A stretch of DNA of 64,000 nucleotides from NCBI GenBank assembly GCA_964555935.1, contig CAZKUN010000013.1, positions 4,539 to 68,538 of the forward strand. Reading direction: 5' to 3'. A model generated the notes under the pieces. The model did not search any database, was not told the DNA's origin, and worked only from the letters and a program-made list of their open reading frames with translations. Of this stretch, positions 26,029 to 64,000 are shown piece by piece. The DNA is from an uncultured Armatimonadia bacterium. Lineage in GTDB: Bacteria; Armatimonadota; Zipacnadia; Zipacnadales; VGFC01. A program made the translations under genes and the position numbers. Each line of letters begins with the position of its first letter. Position 1 is the first letter of the stretch.

Positions 26029-26247
26029 GTGGTGCTCCGCGCCGACATCGGGCTCCTGGGGGTGTCTACGTAGAAAGTTGGCGCAAATGGAGTGGCCGCG
26101 TCGACTATATGTGTAGGGAAGCCTGGCATTTGGGCTTTCGCCCAATTACGAAACTCCCCTTTACATAGGATCAATCACCCCCACCAAACCGAATCAACGA
26201 ACAGGGAACCCGCAGGTTGGGTCGCCCGCGCTACCGAACGTCCCGCC

Positions 26248-33764: not shown

Positions 33765-33797
33765 GGGCGCGATAAATCGCGCCCCTACGATTGGCGG
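33765..33797 (+). repeat. Copy of dispersed hairpin repeat (gggcgcgat-aaa-tcgcgccc + ctacgattggcgg)
   Basis: Hairpin + CTAC..GGCGG tail. It overlaps the stop codon of the convergent sulfatase gene. Confidence 0.7.
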
Positions 33798-35988: not shown

Positions 35989-37538
35989 TGGGAGGAGCAA
36001 TCGCAGCTGTCGTCATACTGGGACTGTGCGGCGGATCGCGCGCCGACGACCTGACGTTCACGCGCGAGCGGTCTGATGAGATGGCGGAGGCGACCCTGAA
36101 CGCTACTGATCTCTCGGAGGCGGAGGGCAATGATCTGGCGTGGGGGATGGGCTACGTGCTCAACGGGTACATGGAGTTGTATGAGGCGACGGGGGATCGC
36201 GATTACCTGCGGAAGGGCGTTGCGCTGGCCGACCAGATGCTGGCCGTGCGCGACGACAAGCTTGGACGCGAGGACTTTGCCGGTCGGTCGCTGCCGGTGT
36301 GGGGAGTTGGCGCCCAGTTCACCGTGGCAAGCGCGACGCTGAAGGATGTCGATGGACGGGACGCGGTTCTGCTGAGATCGATACGGTATGCCTACAACGA
36401 CCAGACGGTGGTGACCGTTGAGACCGGCTCAGAACCGGGGACGTGGAAGCTATCGCACGTGAACGAGCAGTGGAAAGAGCGCGCCACGCAGAGCTTCGAC
36501 AATCTGAGTCTTGACCCCGACTCGCCGAGGTACATTGAGACGGTCATCGCCCAGGTGGAGTACCATCCGGACATCGACTTCGAGCGGGATCTCGAAGAGA
36601 CGCCGTCGTTTCTGCTGATCGCGCTGGACCTGAGGCCGGATGCCACCGACAAGACGCTGGCGCCGGTCGACGACCTGAGGCTCGCTCCGCAGCGGGTGGC
36701 GTACGGGGGATACATCGGCCCGATCTGCGCGCCGATGATGCGGTTGGCGGCGGTGGTGATGAAGGACCGGGCGTTGCGGGAGGAGTTTGGCGAGGCTGCC
36801 AAGCGCTACAGCGATGCGTGTGAGGAGTCGTTCGCGTATTGGCAGGACTCGTGGCGGAACGGCCCCGGCAAGGGTGAGGGCTACTACCTCCTCGTGGCCA
36901 AGGGCGATCCGTTCTGGTGCGATGGCGTGGGCGCGCCGCTGAACTACCTCTGCGCGGCGGGGCAAGCGCTGATACACCTGTATGACGCGACGGGTAAGGC
37001 CAAGTATCGGCGCAAGGCGGCGCGGATTGCGCGGCTACTGAAGAGCCAGCTTGAGCTGAGTGAAGACGACACGTATACCTGGACCTACTGGTGGGGCGCG
37101 GCGGAAACTGGGTGGACGAAGGAGGACGACCTCAGCGTCTACACCCCCGCTTACCCCGGCGGCAAGTACATCGAGGACATCTCACACGGCGCCTGGGATG
37201 TCGAGCACGCGCTGCTCATGTATGAACACGGGCTCGTGTTCACTCGTGAGGACATGGAGCGGTTCGCGAACACGTTCACAGAGAACATCATCATGCCGGG
37301 CGAGGACCGCGTCGCGGATCGCGTCGACGGAAGCACGTACACCGAGGGCACGAATAACATCGCGGGCGGTCGGTGGATGGAACTGAGCGAGTTCGATCCC
37401 GCGATCTTCACGACGATGCGCGACATCTTCGAGGCGAACGGTTACCACAAAGGCGCGTATGGTCACCTCGCGGAGGTGTACGCGAGGCTGTACAAGTGGC
37501 AGGAGAGGCTCGCGGGTGAGGACGGCGGGAGTCAGTAG
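35988..37538 (+). CDS. Hypothetical secreted/lipoprotein, possibly (alpha/alpha)6-toroid polysaccharide-lyase/epimerase-like
   Basis: Start at 35988 overlaps the previous stop (TGATG). N-terminal hydrophobic segment MGGAIAAVVILGLCGG. W/Y-rich helical repeat pattern. No confident family assignment. Confidence 0.5.
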   Translation: MGGAIAAVVILGLCGGSRADDLTFTRERSDEMAEATLNATDLSEAEGNDLAWGMGYVLNGYMELYEATGDRDYLRKGVALADQMLAVRDDKLGREDFAGRSLPVWGVGAQFTVASATLKDVDGRDAVLLRSIRYAYNDQTVVTVETGSEPGTWKLSHVNEQWKERATQSFDNLSLDPDSPRYIETVIAQVEYHPDIDFERDLEETPSFLLIALDLRPDATDKTLAPVDDLRLAPQRVAYGGYIGPICAPMMRLAAVVMKDRALREEFGEAAKRYSDACEESFAYWQDSWRNGPGKGEGYYLLVAKGDPFWCDGVGAPLNYLCAAGQALIHLYDATGKAKYRRKAARIARLLKSQLELSEDDTYTWTYWWGAAETGWTKEDDLSVYTPAYPGGKYIEDISHGAWDVEHALLMYEHGLVFTREDMERFANTFTENIIMPGEDRVADRVDGSTYTEGTNNIAGGRWMELSEFDPAIFTTMRDIFEANGYHKGAYGHLAEVYARLYKWQERLAGEDGGSQ

Positions 37539-37611
37539 CCCGGAGTCCTGGGAATGACCGGAAACCACGAAGACACAGAGGGCGCTAAGGACGGCGAGAA
37601 ATGAGGGCAAC

Positions 37612-39048
37612 ATGAGATCCAACACGCTATCGATCGGCTTCCTGACGTTGTGCGCGGCGGCAGTCATGGCACAGGACGCGGACGTGCCGAGTTTGGCGGA
37701 GGTGCGCGAGCAGCTTCTCGGGACGCCCGCGACGAGTGCGAATCACGCGGATCGCTTACCGATTCTGGTCGCGCTCGACTACCACCTCGAGCAACCGAAC
37801 TCAGAATATGCGGATGCCGTGGTCGAGCACTATGGGCTGATGGTCGACAAGGTGCTGGATGAGGTGAAGAAGACGGTGGTTGACGAGGGCGTGGTGGTTT
37901 GGAAGCTGTACAGCAGCAGCATCATCGTGAAGACGCCGAAGACCGTGTTTGCCTTCGACCTTGACGAAGGCCCGTACACCGGAGTTGGCGAGCCGGATCG
38001 CGTCAAGCCAGACGGCCCATTGCGGATGCACTTCACCGAGAAGCAGCGCAGGCGGATGGCCCGGTTGGTGGATGTGTCGTTCCACACGCACGGCCACCAT
38101 GATCACGTGGACTACGCGCTGACGGAGGCGATGATCAAGGCGGGCACGCCCGTGATCGTGCCGGATGACATCCGCAGGATGTGGGCGCGCGCGCCTTTCG
38201 CCGACGAGCTGACGACGGTCGACGGCGAGCCGACGACCACGTTTGAGATCGCCGGCCTGAAGGTCGAGACCTTCTCATCCCAGCAGTGGATGGCTCCCGA
38301 CCACAGCATCAAGACCCCCTGCAACGCGTACCTGGTGACGACGGATAGCGGCGTCACCGTGCTGGCGAAGGGCGATATCAACGAGGGCGACGACATCCTG
38401 CCGTGGTTCTCGGATCTGAAGGAGCGCGAGATCGGCGTCGACTTGTACGTGGGCCATATCTTCTATTGGTGGGGGCGCGACGTGCTGCCACAGATCCTCC
38501 GGATGCACGACCCGTTCATCATCCCCGGCCATGAGTACGAGTTCGTCCACCGCAAGCCCGACGAAGCGGGGTCCGGGACGGGGTCGTACACGACGCTCAG
38601 CAAGCGATTCGCGAATCAGCTCGAACGGGAGAAGGCGGTTGTGCTGAGCTGGGGCGAGGCGTTCGCGTACTTGCCCGAACTGCACCGCGAATCGAAGTCG
38701 CCGCTGATCTTGACCTGGATTGAGATCGACCCCCAGCCCCGCAAGGTCGAGGTCCGGGTGGGGGAGACGCTTGAGGTCGATCTGAACGCGACGAGTGAGG
38801 GCGTGACGATCCGGCGCTGGTACCTGTCGTTCAGCAAGACGGATGCGCTGAGGAACGTCCCGGGCTTTGACGAGCGCGAGTGGGGCGGGATCCTGCACGA
38901 TCCTGATGGCGACGGCAAGTTCAGCGTTTCCACTGCGGGTTGGCCGGTCGGCGAGTATACGCTCGGATGCACCGCGGACGACTGGCCGGAGGGGGGAACC
39001 CGCACCTCCGGCAGTATTCACGTGACCGTTCTGGCGGGTGAAGGCTAA
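37612..39048 (+). CDS. Secreted MBL-fold metallo-hydrolase with C-terminal Ig-like beta-sandwich
   Basis: Signal peptide present. The HxHxDH motif is SFHTHGHHDHVDY. Downstream His/Asp ligands are present. Confidence 0.75.
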   Translation: MRSNTLSIGFLTLCAAAVMAQDADVPSLAEVREQLLGTPATSANHADRLPILVALDYHLEQPNSEYADAVVEHYGLMVDKVLDEVKKTVVDEGVVVWKLYSSSIIVKTPKTVFAFDLDEGPYTGVGEPDRVKPDGPLRMHFTEKQRRRMARLVDVSFHTHGHHDHVDYALTEAMIKAGTPVIVPDDIRRMWARAPFADELTTVDGEPTTTFEIAGLKVETFSSQQWMAPDHSIKTPCNAYLVTTDSGVTVLAKGDINEGDDILPWFSDLKEREIGVDLYVGHIFYWWGRDVLPQILRMHDPFIIPGHEYEFVHRKPDEAGSGTGSYTTLSKRFANQLEREKAVVLSWGEAFAYLPELHRESKSPLILTWIEIDPQPRKVEVRVGETLEVDLNATSEGVTIRRWYLSFSKTDALRNVPGFDEREWGGILHDPDGDGKFSVSTAGWPVGEYTLGCTADDWPEGGTRTSGSIHVTVLAGEG

Positions 39049-39728
39049 CGCGACCGGACCGTTGCCGGCTCTTCGTAGTCGACGAGGATAAGGTCTGATT
39101 CGTCGATGAGGTGCTCGTAATCGCCCTTCGAGTCGATCCTGCGGTAGGCGTCGTATTTCTCGCGGACCTTGACCGGGAACGAGTAGCCGTAGTGGCGGAT
39201 CTTCACGTCCGACAGGCCCCCAGGTCCTTGCATGCCAAGCACGTGCGCGCCATGGATCGGCTGGAACGGGTAGCGAAGGCTCGGCTGGTTGCGGAACAGC
39301 CGCGTGTGGACATGGTGCAGCGTCTCCTTGCCCCATTTCCCGTCCATTCGATACTGCGTCTTGCCATGCCAGAAGTGCAGCATGTGGAAGCCCCAGACCA
39401 CGTACTCATCTTGGTGAGTGAGTTCGTCGATCCGGGCTGCGATGCGGTCCTCGAACACCTCGTCGATGTCCATCATCAGGATCCAGTCGGGCTCCGTGCC
39501 CTTCACCAGCCCCAGCAACACGTTCCGGTCGAGCCCCTCGTCAAAGAACGTCTTTGGCCACGGCAGCACGGTGCTGACCTTCGGGAACGACCTGCAGATC
39601 TCCACCGTGCGGTCAGTGCTCCCGTCGTCAACCATGACGATTTCATCCACGAACTCGCTTAGCCCCCGGAGGCACTCTTCCGCCCACATCTCTCCGTCTT
39701 TCACCCGTATCCCCGCTGTCAGCTTCAT
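39045..39728 (-). CDS. GT2-family glycosyltransferase (small, soluble)
   Basis: VMVDDGSTDRT and MMDIDE (DxD) motifs, 227 aa. Transcribed divergently from the GT4 cluster. Confidence 0.7.
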   Translation of the reverse strand: MKLTAGIRVKDGEMWAEECLRGLSEFVDEIVMVDDGSTDRTVEICRSFPKVSTVLPWPKTFFDEGLDRNVLLGLVKGTEPDWILMMDIDEVFEDRIAARIDELTHQDEYVVWGFHMLHFWHGKTQYRMDGKWGKETLHHVHTRLFRNQPSLRYPFQPIHGAHVLGMQGPGGLSDVKIRHYGYSFPVKVREKYDAYRRIDSKGDYEHLIDESDLILVDYEEPATVRSR

Positions 39729-39949
39729 GGTGGTCCTCTCAGTGTGATGGTGGCATTATGCCACTGCACACATATTCACTGGCGATTAATCGCTTTTACA
39801 GGGTTAATTAGTGAAATATATGTTGACATGGCCAGTCGCTGCGAGTAGTATTATACAAGTAGCGCATATTCTGTCAATAAATATTACTAAGTTGGATCTG
39901 TGAGCGTCAGGACGGGCGGACAGGTCCACGGGCCAGAGCGAGGGCGCGC
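39729..39949. promoter_or_regulatory. AT-rich intergenic island with sigma70-like promoter (TTGACA 39823..39828, 17-bp spacer, TAGTAT 39846..39851) and 12-bp perfect palindrome GCGATTAATCGC (39782..39793)
   Basis: Read directly. GC is far lower than the surrounding ~67% GC context. The island separates divergent genes 39045..39728(-) and 39950..(+). Confidence 0.55.
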
Positions 39950-41953
39950 GTGCGCATCCTGGATTTCATCACACACCCACCATTCCAGAGCGAGCTGTGC
40001 AAGACCGGGCATGAGTTCGTGCTCGCGGCGAGCGAGTGCTGGGACCACTGGGACGTCAGCCTGAGGCCGCTGCCTGGCAACGCGTCAGTTGTCTCCGAGA
40101 TCGACCCCGAAGGACTCGACTTGGCGATCGTCGCGACGCGCGAGCAATACGTGCGGGCGGCGCGCCTGGACATTCCCGTCATCTTATTGAGCCACACAAT
40201 CATGCACCCATGGGATCGGGAGTTCTTCGCCGCTCTGCCCGATCATGTGGAGATGGTCTACGTAAGCGACCACAAGCGCGCGACGTTCGGGGACCTCGGC
40301 CAGAGGGGCCGGACCATCCGCCTGGCGGCGGACGCTGACGAGGATTTCACCGGCTACTCCGGCGCGGACGCCCGGATTCTCAACGTGACAAACCGGTTCT
40401 CGCAGCAGGGGGACCGAGGCTATGACCTGTATCGGCGCCTGACCGAGGGGTTGCCGGTGCAGGTCATCGGGCATCATAACGACCCGATACCGGGGGCGCG
40501 CGCCGCGACCGATCTCGACGACTTGCGGCAGCTGTATCGCACGAATCGCGCGTACCTGAACACGGACCCCCAGGGGCGATTGCACCTGGCAACGCTCGAG
40601 GCGATGGCCACGGGGATGCCGCTGGTCTCGCCCCCGATCGCGGAGTTGATGCCATACGTTGACGACGGAGTCAACGCGTTCGTTAGCACCGACGAGGGTG
40701 CGCTCCGCGACGCCCTGGAGGAGCTTCTCGAGGACGAGGAGCTAGCGCAGCGTGTCGGCGAGGCGGGACGCGCGATCGTCCGGACCCACTTCGGGATCGA
40801 TCGCTTCCTGCGCGAATGGTCCGAGGCCATTGGCGACGTCGCGGATCGACGCGGCAAGAGCGCCGGCCGCGGATCGCCGCTTCGCCCGCGCCGCGCGGGG
40901 GACGATTCGGGGCTGCGCGTGGCGATCAATGTCGGCCTGCTCGGAACGATCAAGACCGGCATCGGCCAGCACGCCGCGAACCTGGTGGAGGGTCTCGCCG
41001 CGACGGACGGGCCGAACTCGTATCATCTGATCGTGGGCACGTCATCCGTGGACAAGCTGCCCACCGGCCACAACCTGCACCCGCTGCTCGTCCGCTCAGG
41101 CGACGAGATGTGGGAAGAGACAGGACTGCCGTCGGTGCTGGAGGAATGCCGGGCGGATGTATATCACAGCCCCGCATTTGGTATCCCGATCGTGAAACCA
41201 TGCCCGTGTGTGGCGACGGTTCACGACTGCATCCCGAAGCTATTCCCCGAGCACGCGCCCCCGTTTCTCAGGCGTTTCTTCGACGATTGGGCGCCGACTT
41301 GGATGAAACTCGCCGACCACCTGATCGCAGTGTCAGAGCACACCAAGCACGACATCGCGCATCTGTATGGGGTGTCCGAGGACAAGATCACGGTCATCTA
41401 TCAGGCGAGCCCCAGCCGCCGGCGAGTTGATGATGAAGAAGCGATCTCCGACGTGAAGCGGCGGCTGGGCATTCCCGGGCCATACGTTCTCTATGTCGGG
41501 CGCATCGAGCTGCGGAAGAACATCGCAGGCATGATCGATGCGTTCCGGCTATTGCGAGCACGGGGGGACTTTGATGGGACCCTCGTGCTCGCCGGGCCGC
41601 GGGACCCCGAGCCTCACGATCCTGAAGGGGTGTTGCCGCCGGAGGGCGAGTACGGCGACATCATCGTGCCGGGCTTCGTCGCGGAGGACGACCTCTCGGG
41701 CTTGTATTCGGGGGCGCAGGCGTTCTGCTTCCCGTCCTTCTACGAGGGTTTCGGGCTGCCCGTCCTCGAGGCGCTGGCCTGCGGGGTACCGGTCGTGACA
41801 TCCAACGTGTCATCGCTTCCTGAGGTCGGCGGCGACGCGGCCATCTACGTGAACCCACACGACATCGAAGACATGGCGGACGGCATGAGCCGTGCCATTT
41901 CCGACACCCAGCTCCGGGGGGGAGCTGGTCCGGCGCGGGCTCGCGCAAGCTAG
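39950..41953 (+). CDS. Two-module GT4-family glycosyltransferase, C-terminus apparently truncated by a frameshift at a G7 run (would extend to 42020 in the other frame)
   Basis: The N-terminal module has a partial Glycos_transf_1-like domain. The C-terminal module is a full GT4 with EX7E-like EGFGLPVLEALACGVPVV. After ggggggg (41916..41922), the alternative frame encodes a canonical GT4 tail (ELVRRGLAQASRFTAEDAARKTIEVYEKAARS). Confidence 0.75.
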   Translation: MRILDFITHPPFQSELCKTGHEFVLAASECWDHWDVSLRPLPGNASVVSEIDPEGLDLAIVATREQYVRAARLDIPVILLSHTIMHPWDREFFAALPDHVEMVYVSDHKRATFGDLGQRGRTIRLAADADEDFTGYSGADARILNVTNRFSQQGDRGYDLYRRLTEGLPVQVIGHHNDPIPGARAATDLDDLRQLYRTNRAYLNTDPQGRLHLATLEAMATGMPLVSPPIAELMPYVDDGVNAFVSTDEGALRDALEELLEDEELAQRVGEAGRAIVRTHFGIDRFLREWSEAIGDVADRRGKSAGRGSPLRPRRAGDDSGLRVAINVGLLGTIKTGIGQHAANLVEGLAATDGPNSYHLIVGTSSVDKLPTGHNLHPLLVRSGDEMWEETGLPSVLEECRADVYHSPAFGIPIVKPCPCVATVHDCIPKLFPEHAPPFLRRFFDDWAPTWMKLADHLIAVSEHTKHDIAHLYGVSEDKITVIYQASPSRRRVDDEEAISDVKRRLGIPGPYVLYVGRIELRKNIAGMIDAFRLLRARGDFDGTLVLAGPRDPEPHDPEGVLPPEGEYGDIIVPGFVAEDDLSGLYSGAQAFCFPSFYEGFGLPVLEALACGVPVVTSNVSSLPEVGGDAAIYVNPHDIEDMADGMSRAISDTQLRGGAGPARARAS

Positions 41954-42059
41954 TCGGTTCACGGCCGAGGACGCGGCGCGCAAGACGATTGAGGTCTACG
42001 AAAAGGCGGCGCGGAGCTGACTCCGGGCCGACGAGAAGATCGACTGGGGCAATAAGCCA

Positions 42060-43223
42060 ATGCGGGTAGCCATTGACTGTCGGAGCGTGTTCGCCGGGTG
42101 CGGCGGAATCGGGCGCTACACTACGCAGCTCGTGAAGGCCATCGCGAGGATCGATCGCGATACCGATTACTACCTCGTCCGCACCAAGGCCAAGAACGAA
42201 GGGCCGATTGTCGAGCAGGACAATGTCTACGAGATCGTCGTCTCGGCAGGCATGCTTGACGAGAACTTCGAGCAGCTCCACCTCCCGCAACTGCTGGAAA
42301 GCTACGAGATCGATCTGTACCACAACACGACATTCTCGCTCCCGATCGTCCAGCCATGCGTGACGGTCACAACGATTCATGACGTCGTCTTCCACTTCCG
42401 GCCAGACCTGGTCAGGCCGGGGCTGAACGAGTACCTCGCCAAGTGGTCGCGCGTCGCGGCGGAGACGGCAACGCGCATCATCACGGTGTCTCAGTATTCC
42501 AAGGCCGCTATCTGCGACGCGTACGGCGTCGATCCGGCCGGCGTGTCGGTGATCCATGAGGCGGCGGACGCCGAGCGTTTCAGGCCGCGGTACGGTGGCG
42601 CGCTGGAGATCGAGTTCCGCAAGTGCTACGACATCAGCGGCCCATTTGTGCTGTACGTCGGCTCGCTCGAACCGAAGAAGAACATCGATCGCCTGTTGGC
42701 GGCGTTCAAGCGCGCGCGGCGCGATTCACGCTTACCGCACCGGCTCGTGCTGGCCGGAGGAGGGGGCGGCATGGATTACGACGTGCAAGCGGCGATCGAG
42801 GAACTCGGGCTGGAGCAACTTGTGACGGTAACGGGCTACTTGCCTGACAGGTACCTGCCGGTGGCGTACAACGCCGCTGATCTGTTCGCGTACCTGTCGC
42901 TCTATGAGGGATTTGGCTTGCCACCGCTTGAGGCGATGGCGTGCGGAACGCCGACGCTGGTGACGGACTGCACGTCGCTACCGGAGGTGGTGGGGACGGG
43001 CGCTGTTAGGGTGTCGCCGACCGACCCGGATGAGATCGCCGCCGCGCTGGCGTGGATGCTTACCGACCGGGCGCTGCAGGAGAAACTGAGGGAGCGTGGC
43101 CCGGAACGCGCCGCTCAATTCTCGTGGCAGCGCGCGGCGCTAGAGACGCTCGAGGTCTACCGGATGTGTCAGTCGCGCCAGTGGCTGCCCGCCGAGGCCA
43201 TGCTTGAGGAGGCGCACCAGTGA
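42060..43223 (+). CDS. GT4-family glycosyltransferase
   Basis: MRVAIDCR N-terminus, LYEGFGLPPLEAMACGTPTLV (EX7E), 387 aa. Confidence 0.85.
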   Translation: MRVAIDCRSVFAGCGGIGRYTTQLVKAIARIDRDTDYYLVRTKAKNEGPIVEQDNVYEIVVSAGMLDENFEQLHLPQLLESYEIDLYHNTTFSLPIVQPCVTVTTIHDVVFHFRPDLVRPGLNEYLAKWSRVAAETATRIITVSQYSKAAICDAYGVDPAGVSVIHEAADAERFRPRYGGALEIEFRKCYDISGPFVLYVGSLEPKKNIDRLLAAFKRARRDSRLPHRLVLAGGGGGMDYDVQAAIEELGLEQLVTVTGYLPDRYLPVAYNAADLFAYLSLYEGFGLPPLEAMACGTPTLVTDCTSLPEVVGTGAVRVSPTDPDEIAAALAWMLTDRALQEKLRERGPERAAQFSWQRAALETLEVYRMCQSRQWLPAEAMLEEAHQ

Positions 43224-44422
43224 GAGTTATGCACATCGCATCCGAGTACCCGCCGATCCAGGTCTTCGGCCTTGGTCGAGCGGTGCGCGACCTGGCGGTC
43301 GCTTCGGCCGCCGCGGGGCACGAGGTCCACGTCGTTACGAACAGCATCGGTGGTCGGGACAAGAGCGCCGTCATGGACGGCGTGAACGTACATCGGATCT
43401 CGTTTCCGCCGCCACCAAAGCCGCCCGACGGCGTGACCGCCGTGATGCAGTTTGACGTGCTTGCGGTACAGGCCGCCATCGAGGCCGTGAAGCGCCATGG
43501 TCAGCCGGATGTCATCCACGTGCATGACTGGCTGACGGCGCTGCCGGGACGGGTACTGAAGTGGACGTGCCCCGACGCGAAGCTCGTTGTGACGATTCAC
43601 GATACGGCGCATGGGAAGCACTTCGGAGAACTCGATCCTTCGCAACAGTCCACGGCTGACCTGGAACGTTGGATCGGCGAACACGCCGACGAAGTTGTCT
43701 GCTGCAGCGAGCACGTGCTCCGAGAGCTGACCGACACGTACGGTGTCGATCCAAGCAAGATCACGATCATCCCGTGTGGCGTCGACAGGTCGTCGTTTGA
43801 AGTGGATGGCGACCTTGACGCCCTGCGCGAGACCTTCGCCGAGTCAGACGAGCGCATCGTGCTATATGTGGGCCGACTGGATAAGGAGAAGGGCATCCAG
43901 TACCTCGTCGAGGCGGTGAGTCGCGTCATGACGGTTCACCCCAAGACCAAACTCGTCATCGCGGGCAAGGGCGTGCTCCAAGAAGCCATCCAGAAGCACG
44001 CGCACAACGTGGGGGTCGGCGACCGAGTGCTATTCGTCGGGTACGTAACGGGGAGCGTGCTATCGGGGCTGTACCGGCGTGCCGATGTGCTCGTAGTGCC
44101 CAGCACGTACGAGCCGTTCGGTCTCGTGGCGCTTGAGGGGATGGTCTGTGGCGCGCCGCTCGTGGCGTCGACGGCGGGTGGCTTGGGCGATATTGTCGAG
44201 CACGAGCAGACGGGGCTGTCGGTGCCGCCCGCGGATGTCGGAGCGCTGGCGGAGGCCATCACGCGCCTGCTGTCAGATACATCGCTAGCCGAGAGGCTGT
44301 CAGACGCCGGCGTCCGGCGCGCGGAGGAGCAGTACAACTGGACGCGGATCGCCCTCATGCACGAGCCGGTCTACGGCGTGACGGCGAAGGCTCCAGTCGC
44401 CGCCTTGCAGGAGCAAGTCTAG
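43220..44422 (+). CDS. GT4-family glycosyltransferase (paralogue of 46383..47555)
   Basis: MRVMHIASEYPP...GLGR N-terminus, STYEPFGLVALEGMVCGAPLVAS. There is an ATGA overlap with the upstream gene. Confidence 0.85.
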   Translation: MRVMHIASEYPPIQVFGLGRAVRDLAVASAAAGHEVHVVTNSIGGRDKSAVMDGVNVHRISFPPPPKPPDGVTAVMQFDVLAVQAAIEAVKRHGQPDVIHVHDWLTALPGRVLKWTCPDAKLVVTIHDTAHGKHFGELDPSQQSTADLERWIGEHADEVVCCSEHVLRELTDTYGVDPSKITIIPCGVDRSSFEVDGDLDALRETFAESDERIVLYVGRLDKEKGIQYLVEAVSRVMTVHPKTKLVIAGKGVLQEAIQKHAHNVGVGDRVLFVGYVTGSVLSGLYRRADVLVVPSTYEPFGLVALEGMVCGAPLVASTAGGLGDIVEHEQTGLSVPPADVGALAEAITRLLSDTSLAERLSDAGVRRAEEQYNWTRIALMHEPVYGVTAKAPVAALQEQV

Positions 44423-45222
44423 TGGACATCTACCACAGCGGGCGCGAGATCAGCCCGGATTACGCGAGCGTCGTGATCCCCGTCTACAACCAGCTCGAGC
44501 ACACCCGCGTGTGTTTCGACAGTCTCAGCGAGCACACGCGCTACCCGTGGCGTCTGATCGTCGTGGACAACGGGAGCAGCGACGGCACGGGCGAGTACCT
44601 CGCCGAGCGCGCGGCTGAGTGCGACCATCTGACGGTTATCACGAACGAGGAAAACGCCGGCTTTACGCTCGCCGTGAATCAAGGGATGGAGGCCGCGGAT
44701 GGCCGGCACGTGGTGCTTCTGAACAACGACACGACGGTCACGCCGGGCTGGCTGATGGGCCTCGTGATGCTCGCGGAGAGCGATGATCGGATTGGCCTGG
44801 TCGGGCCCAAGATCCTGCATCCGGAGACAGGCCAGATCCGGACCATTGGGGGACTCGTCTTCCATATGGGCGGGAAGGTCAGTCCGCCACCGGGGCAGGA
44901 CCAGGACGCCGCCGATCCTCGGTTTGCGGAGCCCTTCGAGTGTCAGTACGTTGAGGGCTCTTGCATGCTGATCAAGCGCGCCGTCATCGATGAGATTGGC
45001 GTTCTCGACGAGGTCTTCGCGCCGGCGTATTACGAGGACACAGACTACTGCTTCCGCGCGCGGGAAGCGGGTTTTCGGATCGTGTACTCGCCCTACTCAG
45101 AGATCTACCACCACTCGACAGTCACCGCCCAGGCCGTCAACGCGGAAGACCCGTCGTATGCGGCAGCAGCACGCCGGAACGACATGATCTTCAAGGCGCG
45201 CTGGGCGCACAGGTTCTGGTGA
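44422..45222 (+). CDS. GT2-family glycosyltransferase
   Basis: SVVIPVYNQ, VVDNGSSDGT and DxD (NNDT) motifs, 266 aa. Confidence 0.8.
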   Translation: MDIYHSGREISPDYASVVIPVYNQLEHTRVCFDSLSEHTRYPWRLIVVDNGSSDGTGEYLAERAAECDHLTVITNEENAGFTLAVNQGMEAADGRHVVLLNNDTTVTPGWLMGLVMLAESDDRIGLVGPKILHPETGQIRTIGGLVFHMGGKVSPPPGQDQDAADPRFAEPFECQYVEGSCMLIKRAVIDEIGVLDEVFAPAYYEDTDYCFRAREAGFRIVYSPYSEIYHHSTVTAQAVNAEDPSYAAAARRNDMIFKARWAHRFW

Positions 45223-46361
45223 GGCGGAGAATGAGCAAGAGGAAACGCCGGACGATTGCCGTTGACTGCCGCATCTTGAGCGCGCCGCCGGGTGGGAGCG
45301 CGTTCTACACGCGGCACGTGCTGAAGGCATTGGCGAAGCTGGGCGTGCGCGACGACTACGCGCTGATCCAAGGGCCGGGCGCTCAGAACGGACAGACGAT
45401 CCGCTCGCCGAGATTCCGCGACGTGATGGTCGATGACGCGAGCCTCTGCGACGAACGCTGGGAGCAGTGGCAGATGCCGAGCCAGCTCACCGAACTCGGC
45501 GCCGACCTGCTATTGGCTCCCACGATGGTGCTTCCGGCGCTACGCAGTTGTCCCTGCGTTCAGGTCATATACGATCTTGGGTTCGAGGTCCACGCGAGCT
45601 TCTACACTCCGGAGTTGAGGCGCTACTTGCGCAAGTGGGTCCGGCTTAGCGCGCGCAACGCGGACCACATCGTCACCCTCAGCGAGCACGCGCGAAGCGA
45701 GATCACGAGCATCTACTGCGTTCCTGATGAGAAGATCACGACCATCCCCGGCGCGCCCGCCGCGCATTTCGCCCCCGCGAGACGCGATGACATCGAGGCC
45801 ACGTTGCGGCGCCACCGGATCAGCCGCCCGTACGTTCTTAGCGTCGCAAGCGCCGAGCGCAACAAGAATCTGCCGGCGCTCATCGAGGCGTTCTCAACGG
45901 CTTGCTTGGGCGCGAAGGGCGGCTGGCAACTCGTGCTGACCGGCCGGGCCGGCGGGGGCGAGCGCGAAATCAGAGAAGCGCTCGGGCGGAATGGGATTGA
46001 GGACAGAGTCGTCATGACCGGCTTCGTCCCGGACGAGGATCTGCCGGCCCTGTACTCGGGGTCAGAGATCTTCGCATTCCCGTCGCTGTATGAGGGCTTT
46101 GGTCTTCCGCCGGTGGAGGCGTTGGCGTGTGGGACGGCAGTGCTCTGCTCCAACGCCGCTTCGCTACCCGAGGTCGTGGGTGACGCGGGCTTGCTTGCCG
46201 ACCCGACGCCTGAATCGTTCGCCGACGGGCTGGAAACGCTGATGGGCGACGAGAAGCTGAGGTCGGCCCTTCGCGTCAAAGGCCTCAGCCGCGCGCGCGA
46301 GTTCTCGTGGGAGGCGTCGGCCAAGCTGCTGCTGGGTGTGATCGAGACGACGGTTGGATGA
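45219..46361 (+). CDS. GT4-family glycosyltransferase
   Basis: IAVDCR N-terminus, LYEGFGLPPVEALACGTAVLCS. The start may be the ATG at 45231. Confidence 0.85.
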   Translation: MRRRMSKRKRRTIAVDCRILSAPPGGSAFYTRHVLKALAKLGVRDDYALIQGPGAQNGQTIRSPRFRDVMVDDASLCDERWEQWQMPSQLTELGADLLLAPTMVLPALRSCPCVQVIYDLGFEVHASFYTPELRRYLRKWVRLSARNADHIVTLSEHARSEITSIYCVPDEKITTIPGAPAAHFAPARRDDIEATLRRHRISRPYVLSVASAERNKNLPALIEAFSTACLGAKGGWQLVLTGRAGGGEREIREALGRNGIEDRVVMTGFVPDEDLPALYSGSEIFAFPSLYEGFGLPPVEALACGTAVLCSNAASLPEVVGDAGLLADPTPESFADGLETLMGDEKLRSALRVKGLSRAREFSWEASAKLLLGVIETTVG

Positions 46362-46382
46362 ACCCGAGGAGGACCCGATAAC

Positions 46383-47555
46383 GTGAAGGTGCTTACGCTC
46401 GCCACCGAGTTTCCCCCTGCCCGTGGATATGGTTTGGGGAGGTACATCGCCGAACACAGCGCCGCCCTCGCCGCCGCCGGCGTGGAGTCGCACGTCGCGT
46501 GCAACAACCACGACGGGGTCAGCGATAGCTACGACCGCGAGGGCGCGCGCGTGCATAACGCGCCGTTCCCTATCCCGGTCCAAGGTCACACTTGGATCAA
46601 CGAGGCGATGCAGGGGAACTCGCTCCTGGTCGCCCGCGGCGCGAGAATCGCGGATGAGCACGGGCCCTTTGACGTCATTCAGGCCCATGACTGGCTGGCG
46701 GCGAGCGCCGCGCGGTCTCTGCAGGAGATGCTGGGGATCCCTCTCGTGTTGACCATGCACGACACGCAGATTGGGAAGGCGCTTGGCGAACTCACCGACG
46801 ACCAGCGCTACATCGCCGAGGTAGAGGCGTGGATTTGCGGTCATGCCGACGCCGTGGTCGCCAACTCGTTCTTCATGGGCCGCGAGCTGAGCCAGGCCTA
46901 CAAGGTCCCGGACGAGAAGCTCGACGTGATCCACTGCGGCGTCAACCCGAAGTCGTTCGAGACGGACGCGGATCCCAAGCTGTTCAGGACCCTTTTCTGC
47001 GAGCCCGGCGAGCGGCTCGTGGGGTTCGTCGGCCGGCTGGCGCAGGTCAAGGGGCCGCACGTTCTGCTGGAGGCCGTGCCGAAGGTGCTGCGCGCTTGCC
47101 CAAACACGAAGTTCGTGATAGCCGGCGAGGGCGCTCTTCGCGACGGTCTCGAGCGCCACGCGGCAGGCCTCGACGTGCAGTCGCGCGTGCAGTTCACGGG
47201 GTACCTCTCCGGCCAGGTGCTATCGACGTTCTATCGGGCGGCCGATGTGATGGCGGCGCCGAGCCTCTACGAGCCGTTCGGCATGGTCGCGCTTGAGGCA
47301 TCCGTCTGCGGGACGCCCGTGGTCGCGGGCGATACCGGCGGGCTGTCTGAGATCGTCGAGGACGGGGAGACGGGCGTCAAGGTCCCGCCCAACGACCCGG
47401 ACGCACTGGCTTCGGCTATCGTGAAACTCCTCGTCGACGTGCGAAGGATCGAGCGGATGGGCATCGCGGCCAATCGTCACGCGCGATCGAACTTCTCCTG
47501 GCACGCGGTCGCGCGCAAGCAGATCGAGGTCTACGAGAAAGTGCTGGCGGCGTGA
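46383..47555 (+). CDS. GT4-family glycosyltransferase (paralogue of 43220..44422)
   Basis: MKVLTLATEFPP...GYGLGR N-terminus, SLYEPFGMVALEASVCGTPVVAG. Confidence 0.85.
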   Translation: MKVLTLATEFPPARGYGLGRYIAEHSAALAAAGVESHVACNNHDGVSDSYDREGARVHNAPFPIPVQGHTWINEAMQGNSLLVARGARIADEHGPFDVIQAHDWLAASAARSLQEMLGIPLVLTMHDTQIGKALGELTDDQRYIAEVEAWICGHADAVVANSFFMGRELSQAYKVPDEKLDVIHCGVNPKSFETDADPKLFRTLFCEPGERLVGFVGRLAQVKGPHVLLEAVPKVLRACPNTKFVIAGEGALRDGLERHAAGLDVQSRVQFTGYLSGQVLSTFYRAADVMAAPSLYEPFGMVALEASVCGTPVVAGDTGGLSEIVEDGETGVKVPPNDPDALASAIVKLLVDVRRIERMGIAANRHARSNFSWHAVARKQIEVYEKVLAA

Positions 47556-47574
47556 GGCGTGGGTGCGGAGCCGT

Positions 47575-48303
47575 CTACACCAGCCACCAGTGGCCGGGCT
47601 CGAGTTTCTCGATGTTGAAGTTGCGCTGGTCCTCGGGAAGCGATTCGAGCAGCTCGCGGGCCTTCGCGCCGATCGCGGCGGAGGCCAGTTCGGCGTTGCG
47701 CATTCCGACCTCGGGCGTAGCGTGCTCGCGCGGGTCCATGCCGCCGATTCCGTGGGGGGCCGACATGTCGAAGACGATTTCCTCGCCGTCGAGCGTCGAC
47801 ATGTCGACGGTGTCGGGATAGAAGAACATCATGTTGGATGTCTCCCACTTGGCCGCGTGATCGCTGTTGGACTCCTCGCCCTGGCTGAGCGTCATCTCCC
47901 ACAGTCCGACCCCGGCGCACGTGCTGTCTGCCGTGACCGGTTCGAGAGCGTTCTCGATCATCTCGATCTGCTCTTTAACGTTGTGTCCCGACACGCCGAT
48001 GATGACCCGGAATCCCGTCTTCTTGAGCTGGTCGAAGAGGTTGGTGATGCTGGGGACGAGGTGCTCCTGATCGAAACCGGCGTGGAAGAACACCGGCGGG
48101 TACACGACGCCGCCAAACTGCTCGGCACACTTGACGAGAATCGCGTGAGCCTTGATCGCGTCGTTGCCGAGCGGCAGATGAGTCCCATGCCACTCGATCA
48201 GACCGAATGGGACGTAAACGACGGGGAATTCGCGGGCGGCGGCCTCGAGTTGGCCGGGCCGCATGAACTGCATCTGCACGTCGGGCGAGAGCGTGTTGTC
48301 CAT
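47575..48303 (-). CDS. Creatininase/creatinine-amidohydrolase-family protein (MftE/ArfB-like amidase)
   Basis: PVVYVPFGLIEWHGTHLPLGNDAIKA matches the family metal-binding N-terminus (..G..EqHGpHLPlgtD). The start is reassigned to the ATG at 48303 with a GGAGGTG RBS. The upstream part of the track ORF is low-complexity shadow. Confidence 0.75.
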   Translation of the reverse strand: MDNTLSPDVQMQFMRPGQLEAAAREFPVVYVPFGLIEWHGTHLPLGNDAIKAHAILVKCAEQFGGVVYPPVFFHAGFDQEHLVPSITNLFDQLKKTGFRVIIGVSGHNVKEQIEMIENALEPVTADSTCAGVGLWEMTLSQGEESNSDHAAKWETSNMMFFYPDTVDMSTLDGEEIVFDMSAPHGIGGMDPREHATPEVGMRNAELASAAIGAKARELLESLPEDQRNFNIEKLEPGHWWLV

Positions 48304-48415
48304 TGGTCGGCACCTCCGTGGTGGGTGAGTGCTTCGCCCATCATCCGGGCGGACACCTTCTCCGTTGCGGTCCGAGCCGGCGGGTGTTAGTGTATGGGTG
48401 AGGAGGCGTTTGCCG

Positions 48416-50228
48416 ATGATTCCGCTCATTGCCCTCGCGCTGCTACCCGTGGCGTTGCCTGCCGCTGAGCTTCCCCTGCCGCCCGGCGACACGATCTCGG
48501 GGCCGTGGGTTGTGAAGCTGTTCCTGGATGATGGCGATCCGACAAGCCTTGGGGAAGCGGCGATTATCCAACTGGGTGACGACGCGGAGGTCGGTCGGAC
48601 GCTTACTATCGGGCCGTGGTGGCGGGGCAACTGGTCAGCACGCGTCCAGCATGTCGAGAACCTCCCAGTTGAGCCGATCGTCGCGCGCGGGATGTACAGA
48701 ACCGATGGCCTGCTCGCGCTCATGGCGGGCGGGAGGGTGGAGTATTTCGACACCGCCGGCAAGCGCGTCGGCATGATGCCGTTCGCGCTGGCCGCCGAGG
48801 ATGAATGGACGCCGTTCGCTTTCAGGATCGACAAGTTCCCGCCAGGCGCAGAGAGCATGCAGCTCGCCTTCGGACTGCGGACCCACACCTCGGGGCGGGT
48901 GCAGTTCGCCAGACTCGGATACGACGCCGCGGGCCCGCATCCCCTGTCCGGCATGGCCGGCCCGGTCATCACGCGGCCTCGCCCGCCAGTCGGTTCTGAG
49001 GCCACCGGGTTCTTCCGCGTGGAGAAGACGGATGGCTCGTGGTGGCTGGTCGATCCCGATGGGCGCCCGTTCTACTCGTTGGCAACCGACCCACCTTCCC
49101 CCCCGTTCGGACGATGACCTCATCGCGAACTGCAGTCGGTATGTCGATCAACTGCGCGGTTGGGGTTTCACGGGGATCGCCGGCTGGGCGAGCGCGACGA
49201 CGTACGCGAAGCACAATGATGTGATGCTCGAACAGGGCAAGCCCACGTTCGCGCTTTTCAAGGTCATCAACTTCCACGACGCCGGCAAGTACGGCGAGTT
49301 CGACATGCTGACCGATCGCGATGGCAACCAGAAGTCCGGCGAGCACGGTTTCCCGGATCCGTTCGACCCGCGCTTCGAGGTGACGGCCTACAAGAAAGCT
49401 GCGGCGACGGTGGAGTCGCTGGCGGACCGGCGGGACGTCATCGCATGGTTCGTCGATAACGAAATGAGCTTCAGCGAGTTGTATCGGTACGTCTGGAGCG
49501 AGCACTGTGGCGAGGCGCTCTTGAAGCACTTGCGGGGGAAGTATGAGACGATCGGAGCCCTCAACGAGCGATGGGGAGCGGGGTTTGCGGATTGGGATGC
49601 GTTACGGGCTCAGAGGCCCGCGCCCCTCATGCCCAAGGGGCCGATGTATGATGACCTTGTGGCCTTCGAGCGCGTCCTGGTGAAACGGTATGTCGATATC
49701 AGCATCGCGGCGATCCGCGCGGTCGACGCGAACCACCTCATCGCCTCGAACCGGTTTAACATGGGCGGCCATGAGGCGTGGATGCGGACCATCGACCTCG
49801 CCTCGGCCTATGACATCGTGGCGTGCAACTTGTATCCCTCGAACCAGGAGCCGGGCGTGGGGAGGGCGGGCTTGCAGGTGCTGCGCGAGGTCGCGAGACG
49901 GACCGGCCGTCCGATGATCATGGGTGAGTGGAGCGTTCCGGCGATGGACAGCGGGCTGTATGAGATGCGCAAGGCGAAGCTGGACTGGTCATTCCCGCAG
50001 ACCGTGCCGACGCAGGAGATCCGCGCCGCGCAGGCCGCTCGGATCGCGGCTGATTACTTCAACGAGCCCTACATGGTCGGCGCGCACTGGTTCATCTATC
50101 GAGACTTCGACAGCGAGAAGCGCGAGGCGAACCGTGGCTTGGTCAGGAGCGACGGCGCGCCATACGAAGCGCTGACGGAAGCGCTGACCGACGTTCACGC
50201 GTCGATCGCTGACCACATCTCGCGGTAG
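48416..50228 (+). pseudogene. Secreted clan GH-A-like glycoside hydrolase interrupted by a frameshift at a C7 run (49098..49104); two ORF pieces 48416..49117 and ~49100..50228
   Basis: Signal peptide MIPLIALALLPVALPAAELP. The coding sense continues across frames (…FFRVEKTDGSWWLVDPDGRPFYSLATD | PPSP… then …DDDLIANCSRYVDQLRGWGFTGIAGW…). The C-terminal piece carries a GH-A-like motif GAHWFIYRDF…NRGLV. Confidence 0.65.
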
Positions 50229-57662: not shown

Positions 57663-59272
57663 CGGTACTGAATGATCTGCGCTTCGACCCAATGCGTGGC
57701 GCGGCTCTTGTCGCGGTTTTCGTTGAGGTAAGGCGCGGGCGTGTAGGTGATCGCGCACGGCTTGGCAGGCGCCACGGCGTCGGTGATATCGATGTCCCAT
57801 GGCGTGACGATGTCGCCGGGCGCCCAGCCTGCGCGGTCGAACTTCCACGTGCCCCCTTGCGGCCGGCATGGGTTCAGGTAGACATCGGTCTTCCAGAGCG
57901 TGTTCTCGTACGATGTCTCGTTGACAGTGACCGTTCGGCCGGCGGGCATGAACTCGGCGGCGTTCTTGCTGCTAGGGCTCATCCCGTGCCCGGTGACCAT
58001 GAACCGCAGCTTGGCGGCCTTCGCATCGGCGCCGATGACGCCCGTGCGGGGCGCGAACCAATCGGCCATCGGGTGGTCCGGATTCCCGTACTCAGGCTGG
58101 CCGGACCAGAGGTTCGTAACGCTGAACGCCTCGCGTTCGGGTGTGCCGGGGTAGTAGTCGAGATCGACGCTCACCTTCCATCCCTGGCGCGTCTCGTGGG
58201 TCTCCCCGCCGACCCAGGTGTCGATGTAGAGTCCCATTTTCCGGTGCCCGCGCAGGATGGACTGGTAGTCCGTCACGTCGACCTTCCACGTGTAGCCGCG
58301 GCCGAAAGGCGTGATGTAGCGGCAGATCTCGTAGCGCTCGCCGTCATCCCCCCACGCGTAGATGGCAGCCGAGCGGTCCCAGGGATCAAAGTCTCCCGGC
58401 GGCGCAGCGAGGGAGAGCGTGAGGATGATCCGGGCGACCTGCAAGTCGGGCGGCGCGAGCTGGAATTCGCCCACCGGTGTCCGGTTGCCCGCGTGGACGA
58501 TCTCGCGAGCGAAGAACTGGTAGCGCTGCCGCGCGGCGCGGTCGGCGGAGGCGATTGGGTCAAGATACTCGACGGTCAGATCGTCAACGGCCAGGCGAGT
58601 GGTCATGCCACCCGTTCGGCCCGCGAGGGCGACGCGACACTCGTGAGGCACCATCTCCGCGATGAAGTGGTCGTGGTAGATGTCGGTGTCGTCGATGGTC
58701 ACGCTCACCAACGCTCCGCCGATGACATGGCGGATCGAGATGTGGACGTCGTGGAACTCCCCGCCGCGGAACTCCACGGGGGAGAGGGCATTCGCGACCT
58801 CGGTTCCGTCCCAATGGACCGAGACCTCGCGCTGGGGACGGCTGTAGACGTTTCCGTTCTCGTCGAATCGATTCTCGGTGGGGGGATTGTAGATGTCAAA
58901 GCCCACGGCAAATGAACGGGTGAGATTTGGCTCTTCCCACTTCCCGACGTTTGGCCCCGCGCCGTGGGTCCCGTAGACACCTGTGTTCAGCAGGGCAAAC
59001 GCCGCGCCGTCCGCGCCCTCATCGCAGCGCAGCCGGAAGGATGCCTCGATCCGCGAATGGGCGCCCTGGGCGGATCGGGGGAAGGCGACCACGTTGCTTT
59101 GATCGGTCTTGCCATGCAGCAGGTGTAGCACCCCATCGCCGATCCGAGGGCCGGGTTGAGAACCGTAGGCCGTAAGGGCGGCGTCGGCGCCGGAGCGCAA
59201 GCGGTCGAATGTGTGGGTCTGGGAATGCGCCGGCGATACGAGAAGGGCGAGGGCGCAGAGGGCGGGGAGCAT
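57659..59272 (-). CDS. Secreted protein with N-terminal L-type (legume-like/ConA-like) lectin domain and uncharacterised C-terminal domain
   Basis: Signal peptide MLPALCALALLVSPAHS from the internal ATG 59272. Lectin-like motifs ADGAAFALL and SFAVGFD (cf. ADGlAFfl / vAVEFDt). Confidence 0.6.
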   Translation of the reverse strand: MLPALCALALLVSPAHSQTHTFDRLRSGADAALTAYGSQPGPRIGDGVLHLLHGKTDQSNVVAFPRSAQGAHSRIEASFRLRCDEGADGAAFALLNTGVYGTHGAGPNVGKWEEPNLTRSFAVGFDIYNPPTENRFDENGNVYSRPQREVSVHWDGTEVANALSPVEFRGGEFHDVHISIRHVIGGALVSVTIDDTDIYHDHFIAEMVPHECRVALAGRTGGMTTRLAVDDLTVEYLDPIASADRAARQRYQFFAREIVHAGNRTPVGEFQLAPPDLQVARIILTLSLAAPPGDFDPWDRSAAIYAWGDDGERYEICRYITPFGRGYTWKVDVTDYQSILRGHRKMGLYIDTWVGGETHETRQGWKVSVDLDYYPGTPEREAFSVTNLWSGQPEYGNPDHPMADWFAPRTGVIGADAKAAKLRFMVTGHGMSPSSKNAAEFMPAGRTVTVNETSYENTLWKTDVYLNPCRPQGGTWKFDRAGWAPGDIVTPWDIDITDAVAPAKPCAITYTPAPYLNENRDKSRATHWVEAQIIQYR

Positions 59273-59342
59273 GGGTGGTCTCCTTGCGTCGGCGGGTGCC
59301 TTCGGCATTGACAGGCGAGGAAACTCGCCGAGTTTCCGCGAC

Positions 59343-63638: not shown

Positions 63639-64000
63639 CTACGGGATGGTGAGTTCGTAGCGGAAGGCGCCGAGATCGGTAGGGAGCAAGACCCGCGTGT
63701 CGAAGACGGTTGTCTCGGGGAGTTCGAGTGGCGCGCCGTCTTCGTCGAAGGCCTGCACGGTCACGGCGTCAGCCGGTACGGAGACCGTCAGCGCGGTCAT
63801 GTTGCCGAGCGGCCAGAGCGTCCAGCGCTTGTCGCTAGCCTTCTTCAGGAGCGCGGCGCCGTCGGTCTTGAGCGGGCCGATGGGTTGGAGCTTGCCACGT
63901 GCGTCAGCAAATGCCACGTCGCCCCACGAGGCGGAGTCAACTCGCGCGCCGTCGAGCAACGCCGAGAAGACCAGCAACCCGCTCGGACCCGATGCGAGGA
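63639..64000 (-). CDS. Partial ORF (C-terminal part) running off the window end; hypothetical
   Basis: The open frame continues to the window edge. No family recognised. Confidence 0.3.
   Translation of the reverse strand, partial: LASGPSGLLVFSALLDGARVDSASWGDVAFADARGKLQPIGPLKTDGAALLKKASDKRWTLWPLGNMTALTVSVPADAVTVQAFDEDGAPLELPETTVFDTRVLLPTDLGAFRYELTIP

Follow-up and report, generated by a model that had tools for sequence, protein, structure and literature searches.

Within the 64-kb stretch of DNA that we analysed (the window), the start codons of two divergent glycosyltransferase genes are separated by an intergenic island of 221 bp (39729-39949), to the left of which lies a GT2 gene on the minus strand and to the right of which begins a block of six genes on the plus strand. 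The original prediction had placed a low-GC stretch of 221 bp exactly between the divergent GT2 gene and a GT4 cluster, and both the coordinates and the gene context proved to be right. Genes in the window were called from a list of open reading frames (ORFs), a gene set based on GC3, and Pfam; the Shine-Dalgarno-like motifs were read from the sequence. The features that delimit the island are:

39045..39728, minus strand: GT2 glycosyltransferase gene "B", 227 aa (Pfam PF00535), the left-hand diverging unit
39735..39740, minus strand: Shine-Dalgarno-like GAGAGG, 6 nt upstream of the GT2 ATG
39940..39944, plus strand: Shine-Dalgarno-like GAGGG, 5 nt upstream of the GT4-667 GTG start codon
39950..41953, plus strand: GT4-667 gene "A", 667 aa, with Glyco_trans_1_2 and GT4 domains, heading the plus-strand block
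42060..47555, plus strand: five more glycosyltransferase genes (GT4, GT4, GT2, GT4, GT4; Pfam), tightly packed

The orthologs of A and B both align to the window proteins from residue 1, which supports both start codons. An NCBI protein identical to A is annotated as "Armatimonadota bacterium" and derives from a metagenome-assembled genome (MAG). The intergenic gaps between the six genes of the plus-strand block are 106, -4, -1, -4 and 21 bp, and this tight packing makes a single promoter for the whole block reasonable; A and the five genes at 42060..47555 likely constitute one operon. The GT4 genes of the cluster also match Pfam "GT4-conflict".

The 3' end of GT4-667 contains a run of seven G residues (G7, 41916-41922) that shifts the reading frame. 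The annotated protein ends in DTQLRGGAGPARARAS followed by a stop codon, and the C-terminal tail conserved in all A orthologs (ending in ELVRRGLAQASRFTAEDAARKTIEVYEKAARS and a stop codon) is encoded one frame over, to 42019 (41952-42019). A run of six G residues at 41916-41922 would restore the tail; G7 is present in all contigs carrying the GT4-667 protein. The run could represent a fixed inactivating or truncating mutation, or alternatively a slippage-prone tract. In one population variant, L008 (ERZ23491134), a 7-bp deletion at window positions 40976-40982 splits GT4-667 at the domain boundary into ORFs of 357 and 322 aa, and contig L011 breaks at the same point. Taken together, the deletion, the break and the frameshift point to decay or variability of the gene that heads the block.

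The base composition of the island differs sharply from that of its surroundings. The window has a mean GC content of 64.9%, somewhat below the ~67% originally given for the flanking DNA, and the whole 221-bp gap has 48%. The low GC resides in an AT-rich core of ~177 bp (39729..39905, 41% GC), whereas the final ~45 bp before the GTG of GT4-667 form a GC-rich leader. A sliding-window GC plot, which had been proposed as a check, placed the lowest 100-bp value of the 64 kb within the island (33% at 39794; sd of the window 4.6), ~6.9 sd below the mean. It had also been allowed that similar AT islands might prove to be common. They are uncommon within the 64-kb window, where one other 100-bp stretch falls below 50% GC (47%, near 26100), and the 17 other intergenic gaps, three of them between divergent genes, have 60-73% GC with a gene set that is approximate in three larger gaps. 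The genes flanking the island have normal GC, and nowhere in the 64 kb does composition deviate more strongly than in the AT-rich core.

Overlapping promoter elements on opposite strands

A promoter scan of the island gave the elements below, which are listed together with an inverted repeat (I2):

39795..39824, plus strand: weak third promoter-like site, TTTACA-18-TATGTT, 9/12
39815..39828: left arm of the inverted repeat, AATATATGTTGACA (arms 86% complementary), comprising AT-rich UP-like DNA and the plus-strand -35
39823..39828, plus strand: -35 hexamer TTGACA
39846..39851, plus strand: -10 hexamer TAGTAT, 17-bp spacer, site score 10/12
39850..39855, minus strand: -10 hexamer TATAAT, sharing 2 bp with the plus-strand -10
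39872..39877, minus strand: -35 hexamer TTGACA, 16-bp spacer, 12/12 overall
39872..39885: right arm of the inverted repeat, TGTCAATAAATATT, bearing the minus-strand -35

The plus-strand TTGACA-17 bp-TAGTAT (39823-39851) is the promoter named in the original prediction. Two features had been overlooked, namely the perfect TTGACA-16-TATAAT on the opposite strand (39877..39850) and the inverted repeat, whose 14-nt arms contain both -35 boxes. Hexamers near TTGACA and TATAAT with a spacer of 16-18 bp, the hallmark of sigma-70 promoters, are present on both strands, although this consensus may not be the norm in the host. The 3' ends of the opposing -10 hexamers coincide over 2 bp (TAGTATTATA, 39846-39855), an overlapping or abutting arrangement of the kind by which bidirectional promoters are recognised. 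Because the two promoters overlap, we read the island as a bidirectional promoter rather than as a plus-strand promoter with an upstream operator. The original proposal of a divergent promoter controlling the whole glycosyltransferase block holds in so far as the island appears to be the promoter region of both units, but its 12/12 half faces GT2 and not the GT4 block. From the usual distance of 7 nt between the -10 element and the start site, plus-strand transcription is predicted to begin at A39857/A39858 with a leader of ~92 nt, and minus-strand transcription at ~39842-39843 with a leader of ~115 nt. The predicted start sites diverge and are ~15 bp apart.

Only three sigma-70-like sites in the 64 kb score at least 10/12 when both strands are considered, and two of them are in the island. 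When the AT core was shuffled 20,000 times, 12/12 matches appeared at a frequency of 1e-4, and matches of at least 10/12 on both strands at 1.5e-3, so the promoter matches exceed what AT-richness alone would yield. The interval 37000-49500 contains three promoter-like sites, all of which are inside the island, and no terminator-like site was found on the plus strand of the glycosyltransferase block or in the island itself. The data support the island as the sole plausible promoter region for both diverging units.

The remaining site of at least 10/12 in the window (TTGACA-17-GAGAAT, 58871-58899, minus strand, 10/12) sits in a 1.2-kb stretch (58155-59342) with uncertain gene models and long overlapping ORFs on both strands. 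In the 17 other gaps the best sigma-70 match ranges from 0 to 10/12, and only this site (58899..58871) exceeds 8. Since the other gaps are mostly devoid of a sigma-70-like consensus, the native promoters of the organism may look different or use alternative sigma factors, and the island may be atypical DNA whose consensus matches do not function as assumed. Poor promoter escape can also limit a promoter of perfect consensus, and a 12/12 match need not mean high output. Cultured representatives of the Armatimonadota have many ECF sigma factors and show dispersal of genes out of operons (PMC4959169), and these two properties fit, respectively, the missing sigma-70 consensus in the other gaps and the relocation of the GT2 gene described below.

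It is conceivable that the 43-bp centre can invert between the arms with their -35 boxes, so that the two directions would exchange the perfect and the imperfect -10 and the promoter would be invertible, or phase-variable. A 14-nt inverted repeat does bracket the -10 region, tyrosine or serine recombinases are found directly upstream of the A homolog in several relatives, and glycan loci are classic targets of phase variation. However, 14 same-species contigs, which come from ten assemblies or sequencing runs, all share one sequence over 39601-40100 (100% identity) and show one orientation, with the reservation that assemblies show the majority state only. No recombinase domain was found by Pfam among the annotated ORFs of the 64-kb window (ORFs 3-329, 57900-58154 and 63639-63998 were outside the scan). 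The 43-bp segment is, to our knowledge, far shorter than known invertons. Within 1.5 kb there are no better flanking inverted repeats, the weak pairs being confined to coding DNA. With neither a second orientation among the 14 contigs nor a recombinase among the window ORFs, the inverton is disfavoured as a candidate, and we regard inversion at this site as extremely improbable.

Palindromes in the island

Two perfect palindromes are present to the left of the promoter elements:

39750..39764: GTGGCATTATGCCAC (also written GTGGCATNATGCCAC), GTGGCAT-T-ATGCCAC, in the predicted GT2 leader, 21 nt upstream of the ATG
39782..39793: GCGATTAATCGC, 12 bp, once in the window

The 12-bp palindrome had been reported originally and is located as described, upstream of the plus-strand -35 with a start-to-start distance of 41 bp. 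The other had been overlooked; it forms a hairpin in the predicted leader fold. The centre of GCGATTAATCGC is at ~-70.5 from the predicted plus-strand start and ~+56 from the predicted minus-strand start, a placement that would be compatible with an activator or a roadblock site but is no proof of either. Perfect palindromes of this class (arms of at least 6, loop of at most 1) number 56 in the 64 kb, corresponding to ~0.19 expected per 221 bp; a single palindrome is for this reason unremarkable, and the probability of finding two in the island is ~0.02. An operator would be expected to recur upstream of other genes or to be conserved in orthologous regions, and neither was observed within the window and the related loci. 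Near-matches to either palindrome elsewhere in the 64 kb (at most 2 or at most 3 mismatches) occur at shuffle expectation, and GCGATTAATCGC is absent from every related locus. The search for further GCGATTAATCGC sites that had been suggested thus returned, in the 64-kb window, only the known copy and a chance number of near-matches. The description of the promoter as "strongly regulated" is not borne out by a palindrome that does not exceed chance, is not repeated in the window and is missing from all relatives. A one-mismatch copy (GCGATAAATCGC, 33769-33780) lies in a 27-bp gap between convergent glycyl-radical-enzyme and sulfatase genes, and the count of such near-matches equals chance.

A tightly regulated promoter would nevertheless be expected if GCGATTAATCGC and/or GTGGCATTATGCCAC were the operator of a dimeric regulator, or if the AT island were coated by a silencer, in which case the glycosyltransferase block would stay off until an activator or anti-silencer intervened. 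The presence of two perfect palindromes against 0.19 expected is in keeping with this, and we infer from its position that GCGATTAATCGC is near the classical class I activator positions for the plus-strand start and could be a roadblock in the GT2 leader. AT content well above the genome average (41% GC in the core against 64.9%) is the type of composition that xenogeneic silencers prefer. A weaker plus-strand promoter facing a perfect opposing one would plausibly need help, given competition as described in PMC12825309. On the other hand, each palindrome taken alone is within chance, the near-matches and the absence of GCGATTAATCGC from the relatives argue against an operator, and the AT tract extends over just ~177 bp. 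No DNA-binding regulator domain was detected by Pfam among the annotated ORFs of the 64-kb window, where gene models are approximate in three gaps and the scan excluded the same three ORFs as above, and no silencer-protein domain (H-NS/Lsr2-like) among the annotated proteins of these 64 kb of the genome. We know of no xenogeneic silencer of the H-NS, Lsr2, MvaT or Rok type in the Armatimonadota. Tight regulation of this kind, which had originally been suggested as H-NS/Lsr2-like silencing or activator dependence, appears unlikely, what speaks for it being limited to position and composition.

A further reading is that the island codes for a small RNA or short peptide, instead of or besides promoters. 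The island contains ORFs of 27-41 codons, and two palindrome hairpins are possible in the minus-strand leader. Nevertheless, there is no Rfam match (island at E<=5, whole window at gathering thresholds) and no tRNA or tmRNA, the folding z-scores of the leaders (-1.6 and -0.6) are unremarkable, the island lacks a terminator-like site, and the short ORFs are without Shine-Dalgarno motifs and largely upstream of the predicted starts. A known cis-regulatory RNA or sRNA was rejected as a candidate on the Rfam and folding results, and it is very unlikely that the island harbours a small gene.

Gene order in relatives and relocation of the GT2 gene

In nine related loci (L018, L020/L021, L023, L024, L026, L028, L051, L052 and L053) B is directly downstream of A on the same strand, usually overlapping the A stop codon, and is followed by the ortholog of C. 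The B orthologs of these nine loci show 60-82% amino acid identity, the highest value being that of L018 (82%). Only in the window lineage is B located upstream of A and inverted, which places the island at a lineage-specific rearrangement junction. The GT2 gene would have left an ancestral A-B-C operon and re-entered, inverted, upstream of A. The island probably arose or was acquired at this relocation, after which a promoter at the junction would have been needed by both units. The 3' end of the relocated GT2 gene overlaps a convergent gene encoding a 478-aa protein of the metallo-beta-lactamase fold by 4 bp (39045-39048), and this overlap leaves zero intergenic DNA on that side of the rearrangement.

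Among the relatives of A, the closest non-clonal one (P0002) shows 66% identity and the others ~48-56%. A scan of species-representative genomes with the GT4-667 protein gave no A ortholog, the matches being distant GT4 proteins with 26-30% identity. No similarity between the island and the upstream region or locus of any relative was detectable, and the 14 same-species contigs are identical over the island, which makes them uninformative as to both conservation and orientation. Contig breaks at 38510-38517 (inside the 478-aa gene) and at 44057 (inside GT4-400) recur in several independent same-species assemblies, which hints at strain variation or a repeated k-mer.

Sharp AT-rich heads occur upstream of A in L022, L023 and L052 (minimum 100-bp GC of 0.38, 0.37 and 0.38, respectively), with a milder one in L018 (0.46), and are absent in L019, L020, L024, L025, L026, L051 and L053. 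Their presence in these four loci makes the AT-rich head a recurrent feature of the cluster that is analogous rather than homologous, and it counts in favour of the island as a promoter region. Palindromic extended -10-like elements precede the A homologs of L019 (GTGATATAATATCAC, 5908-5922), where the element lies between divergent genes, and of L022 (GTGATATGCTATATC...GTGATATAGT, 5787-5815). These may represent another symmetric bidirectional -10 or a shared operator of that sub-lineage. Homologs of the glycosyltransferase cluster adjoin tyrosine integrases, a serine recombinase with a GerE domain, RHS/YD-shell and Fic genes and an AEP-TOTE primase-like gene (neighbour-gene intervals L019 1-5746, L022 527-5545, L023 185-865 and L024 2031-3149, and one further locus), and the company of integrases, recombinase, RHS and Fic genes suggests that the cluster travels in mobile or hypervariable regions.

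These findings raise the question of whether the island is a scar, or foreign low-GC DNA, left by the GT2 rearrangement, in which case the promoter matches would be a by-product of AT-richness and the real promoters would use other sigma factors or lie elsewhere. The island is exactly at the junction, its composition is 6.9 sd off and it has no homolog in the relatives. Apart from the one site in an uncertainly annotated gap, no other gap comes near the sigma-70 consensus, and relatives of the cluster adjoin integrases, recombinases, RHS and Fic genes. Yet the shuffle frequencies for the AT core (1e-4 for 12/12, 1.5e-3 for at least 10/12 on both strands) argue against a by-product, and both genes require a promoter for which nothing else in 12.5 kb qualifies. 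A MITE or IS remnant was considered and rejected, as the island lacks terminal inverted repeats with target-site duplication, occurs only once in the window and gave no blastn match in plasmid or phage collections. A search of JGI metagenomes with the degenerate pattern of the inverted-repeat cassette gave 0 matches, a weak null in that the locus itself is absent there. Foreign origin and promoter function can moreover coexist, and we think it improbable that the island is a scar without promoter function.

A candidate bidirectional promoter and its known counterparts

Our preferred interpretation, which we put forward as probable, is that the island is a compact, pseudo-symmetric bidirectional promoter of the sigma-70 type, that it forms the shared control region of the two diverging units, and that it was probably formed or acquired when the GT2 gene was relocated. 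Transcription of GT2 would start near 39842 from the minus-strand TTGACA-16-TATAAT, with both palindromes in the ~115-nt leader, and the plus-strand TTGACA-17-TAGTAT would start transcription at 39857-39858, giving a ~92-nt leader and reading through GT4-667 and the five further glycosyltransferase genes. The AT-rich, UP-like DNA that precedes each -35 belongs to the arms of the inverted repeat. A single RNA polymerase is expected to cover the ~70-bp cassette (39815-39885), and since it would fill the whole of it the two directions would have to compete sterically. From sequence alone the GT2 direction appears to be favoured, as the GT2-facing promoter is the perfect match. The island belongs to an ordinary kind of regulatory region and is an unusually clean example at a gene-relocation junction.

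A further elaboration, which we consider distinctly unlikely in its entirety, would make the island a competition switch. A short low-GC insert at the GT2 relocation would have supplied the near-perfect symmetric bidirectional promoter, the two units would compete for one polymerase site, output of the GT4 block, which begins with a gene already frameshifted at its C-terminus, would be held down by the perfect GT2-facing promoter, and a factor bound at the palindrome at -70.5/+56 could flip the balance.

If the preferred interpretation holds, the island would give a phylum for which promoter or transcript-start data are not known a textbook-clean natural example of a bidirectional promoter. 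It would also indicate that the housekeeping-sigma consensus is in use in an Armatimonadota genome of 65% GC whose other intergenic regions are mostly without it, and would show how a gene leaving an operon gains a promoter. The ~70-bp cassette (39815-39885) is a candidate compact two-way promoter. Were the competition switch to be confirmed, it would constitute natural rewiring of an operon via polymerase competition outside model organisms. In other respects the island is unexceptional as a regulatory region and raises no long-standing question.

Several known systems resemble the island in part. The invertible promoters of Bacteroides capsular polysaccharide loci likewise head a glycan-synthesis cluster and have inverted repeats around them, but the repeats of the island are 14 nt long and 43 bp apart, there is no nearby recombinase among the annotated ORFs of the window and one orientation was seen in 14 contigs. 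Islands silenced by H-NS, Lsr2, MvaT or Rok are, like this one, locally much poorer in GC than the genome as a whole, contain a promoter-rich AT tract and are associated with rearranged or acquired DNA. They differ from it in that the AT stretch is here only ~177 bp, the flanking genes have normal GC and no silencer is known for the phylum or was found among the annotated window proteins. Divergent promoters of the acrR/acrAB type (PMC12825309) also oppose a short gene to a multi-gene operon, with overlapping promoters and possible polymerase competition. In those systems the short gene encodes a repressor, whereas the short gene at the island encodes a glycosyltransferase, with no adjacent regulator gene and no demonstrated operator.

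The closest counterparts are the bidirectional promoters of Warman/Grainger. By definition, overlapping -10 elements give a bidirectional promoter divergent start sites separated by 7-25 bp. Such promoters are over-represented in horizontally acquired DNA and frequently lie between divergent mRNA genes; the preferred spacings of start sites in E. coli are 29, 23, 18, 12, 10 or 7 bp (bioRxiv 10.1101/2020.01.31.928960). The predicted spacing of ~15 bp in the island is inside the 7-25 bp range but is not one of the preferred values. The Warman/Grainger promoters are from E. coli, in contrast to the uncultured Armatimonadota host of the island, in which the starts are predicted only. Basal activity is low in the characterised E. 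coli promoters, whereas both -35 elements of the island are full consensus and one direction is 12/12. In an E. coli bidirectional promoter, strengthening of one direction represses the other through steric competition of RNA polymerase (PMC12825309). The island resembles the Warman/Grainger promoters in its overlapping opposite-strand -10 elements of the sigma-70 type with predicted starts a few bp apart, in its position between divergent protein-coding genes of related function and in its AT-rich, possibly recently acquired DNA. In those promoters one polymerase-binding event excludes the other, as we propose for the island.
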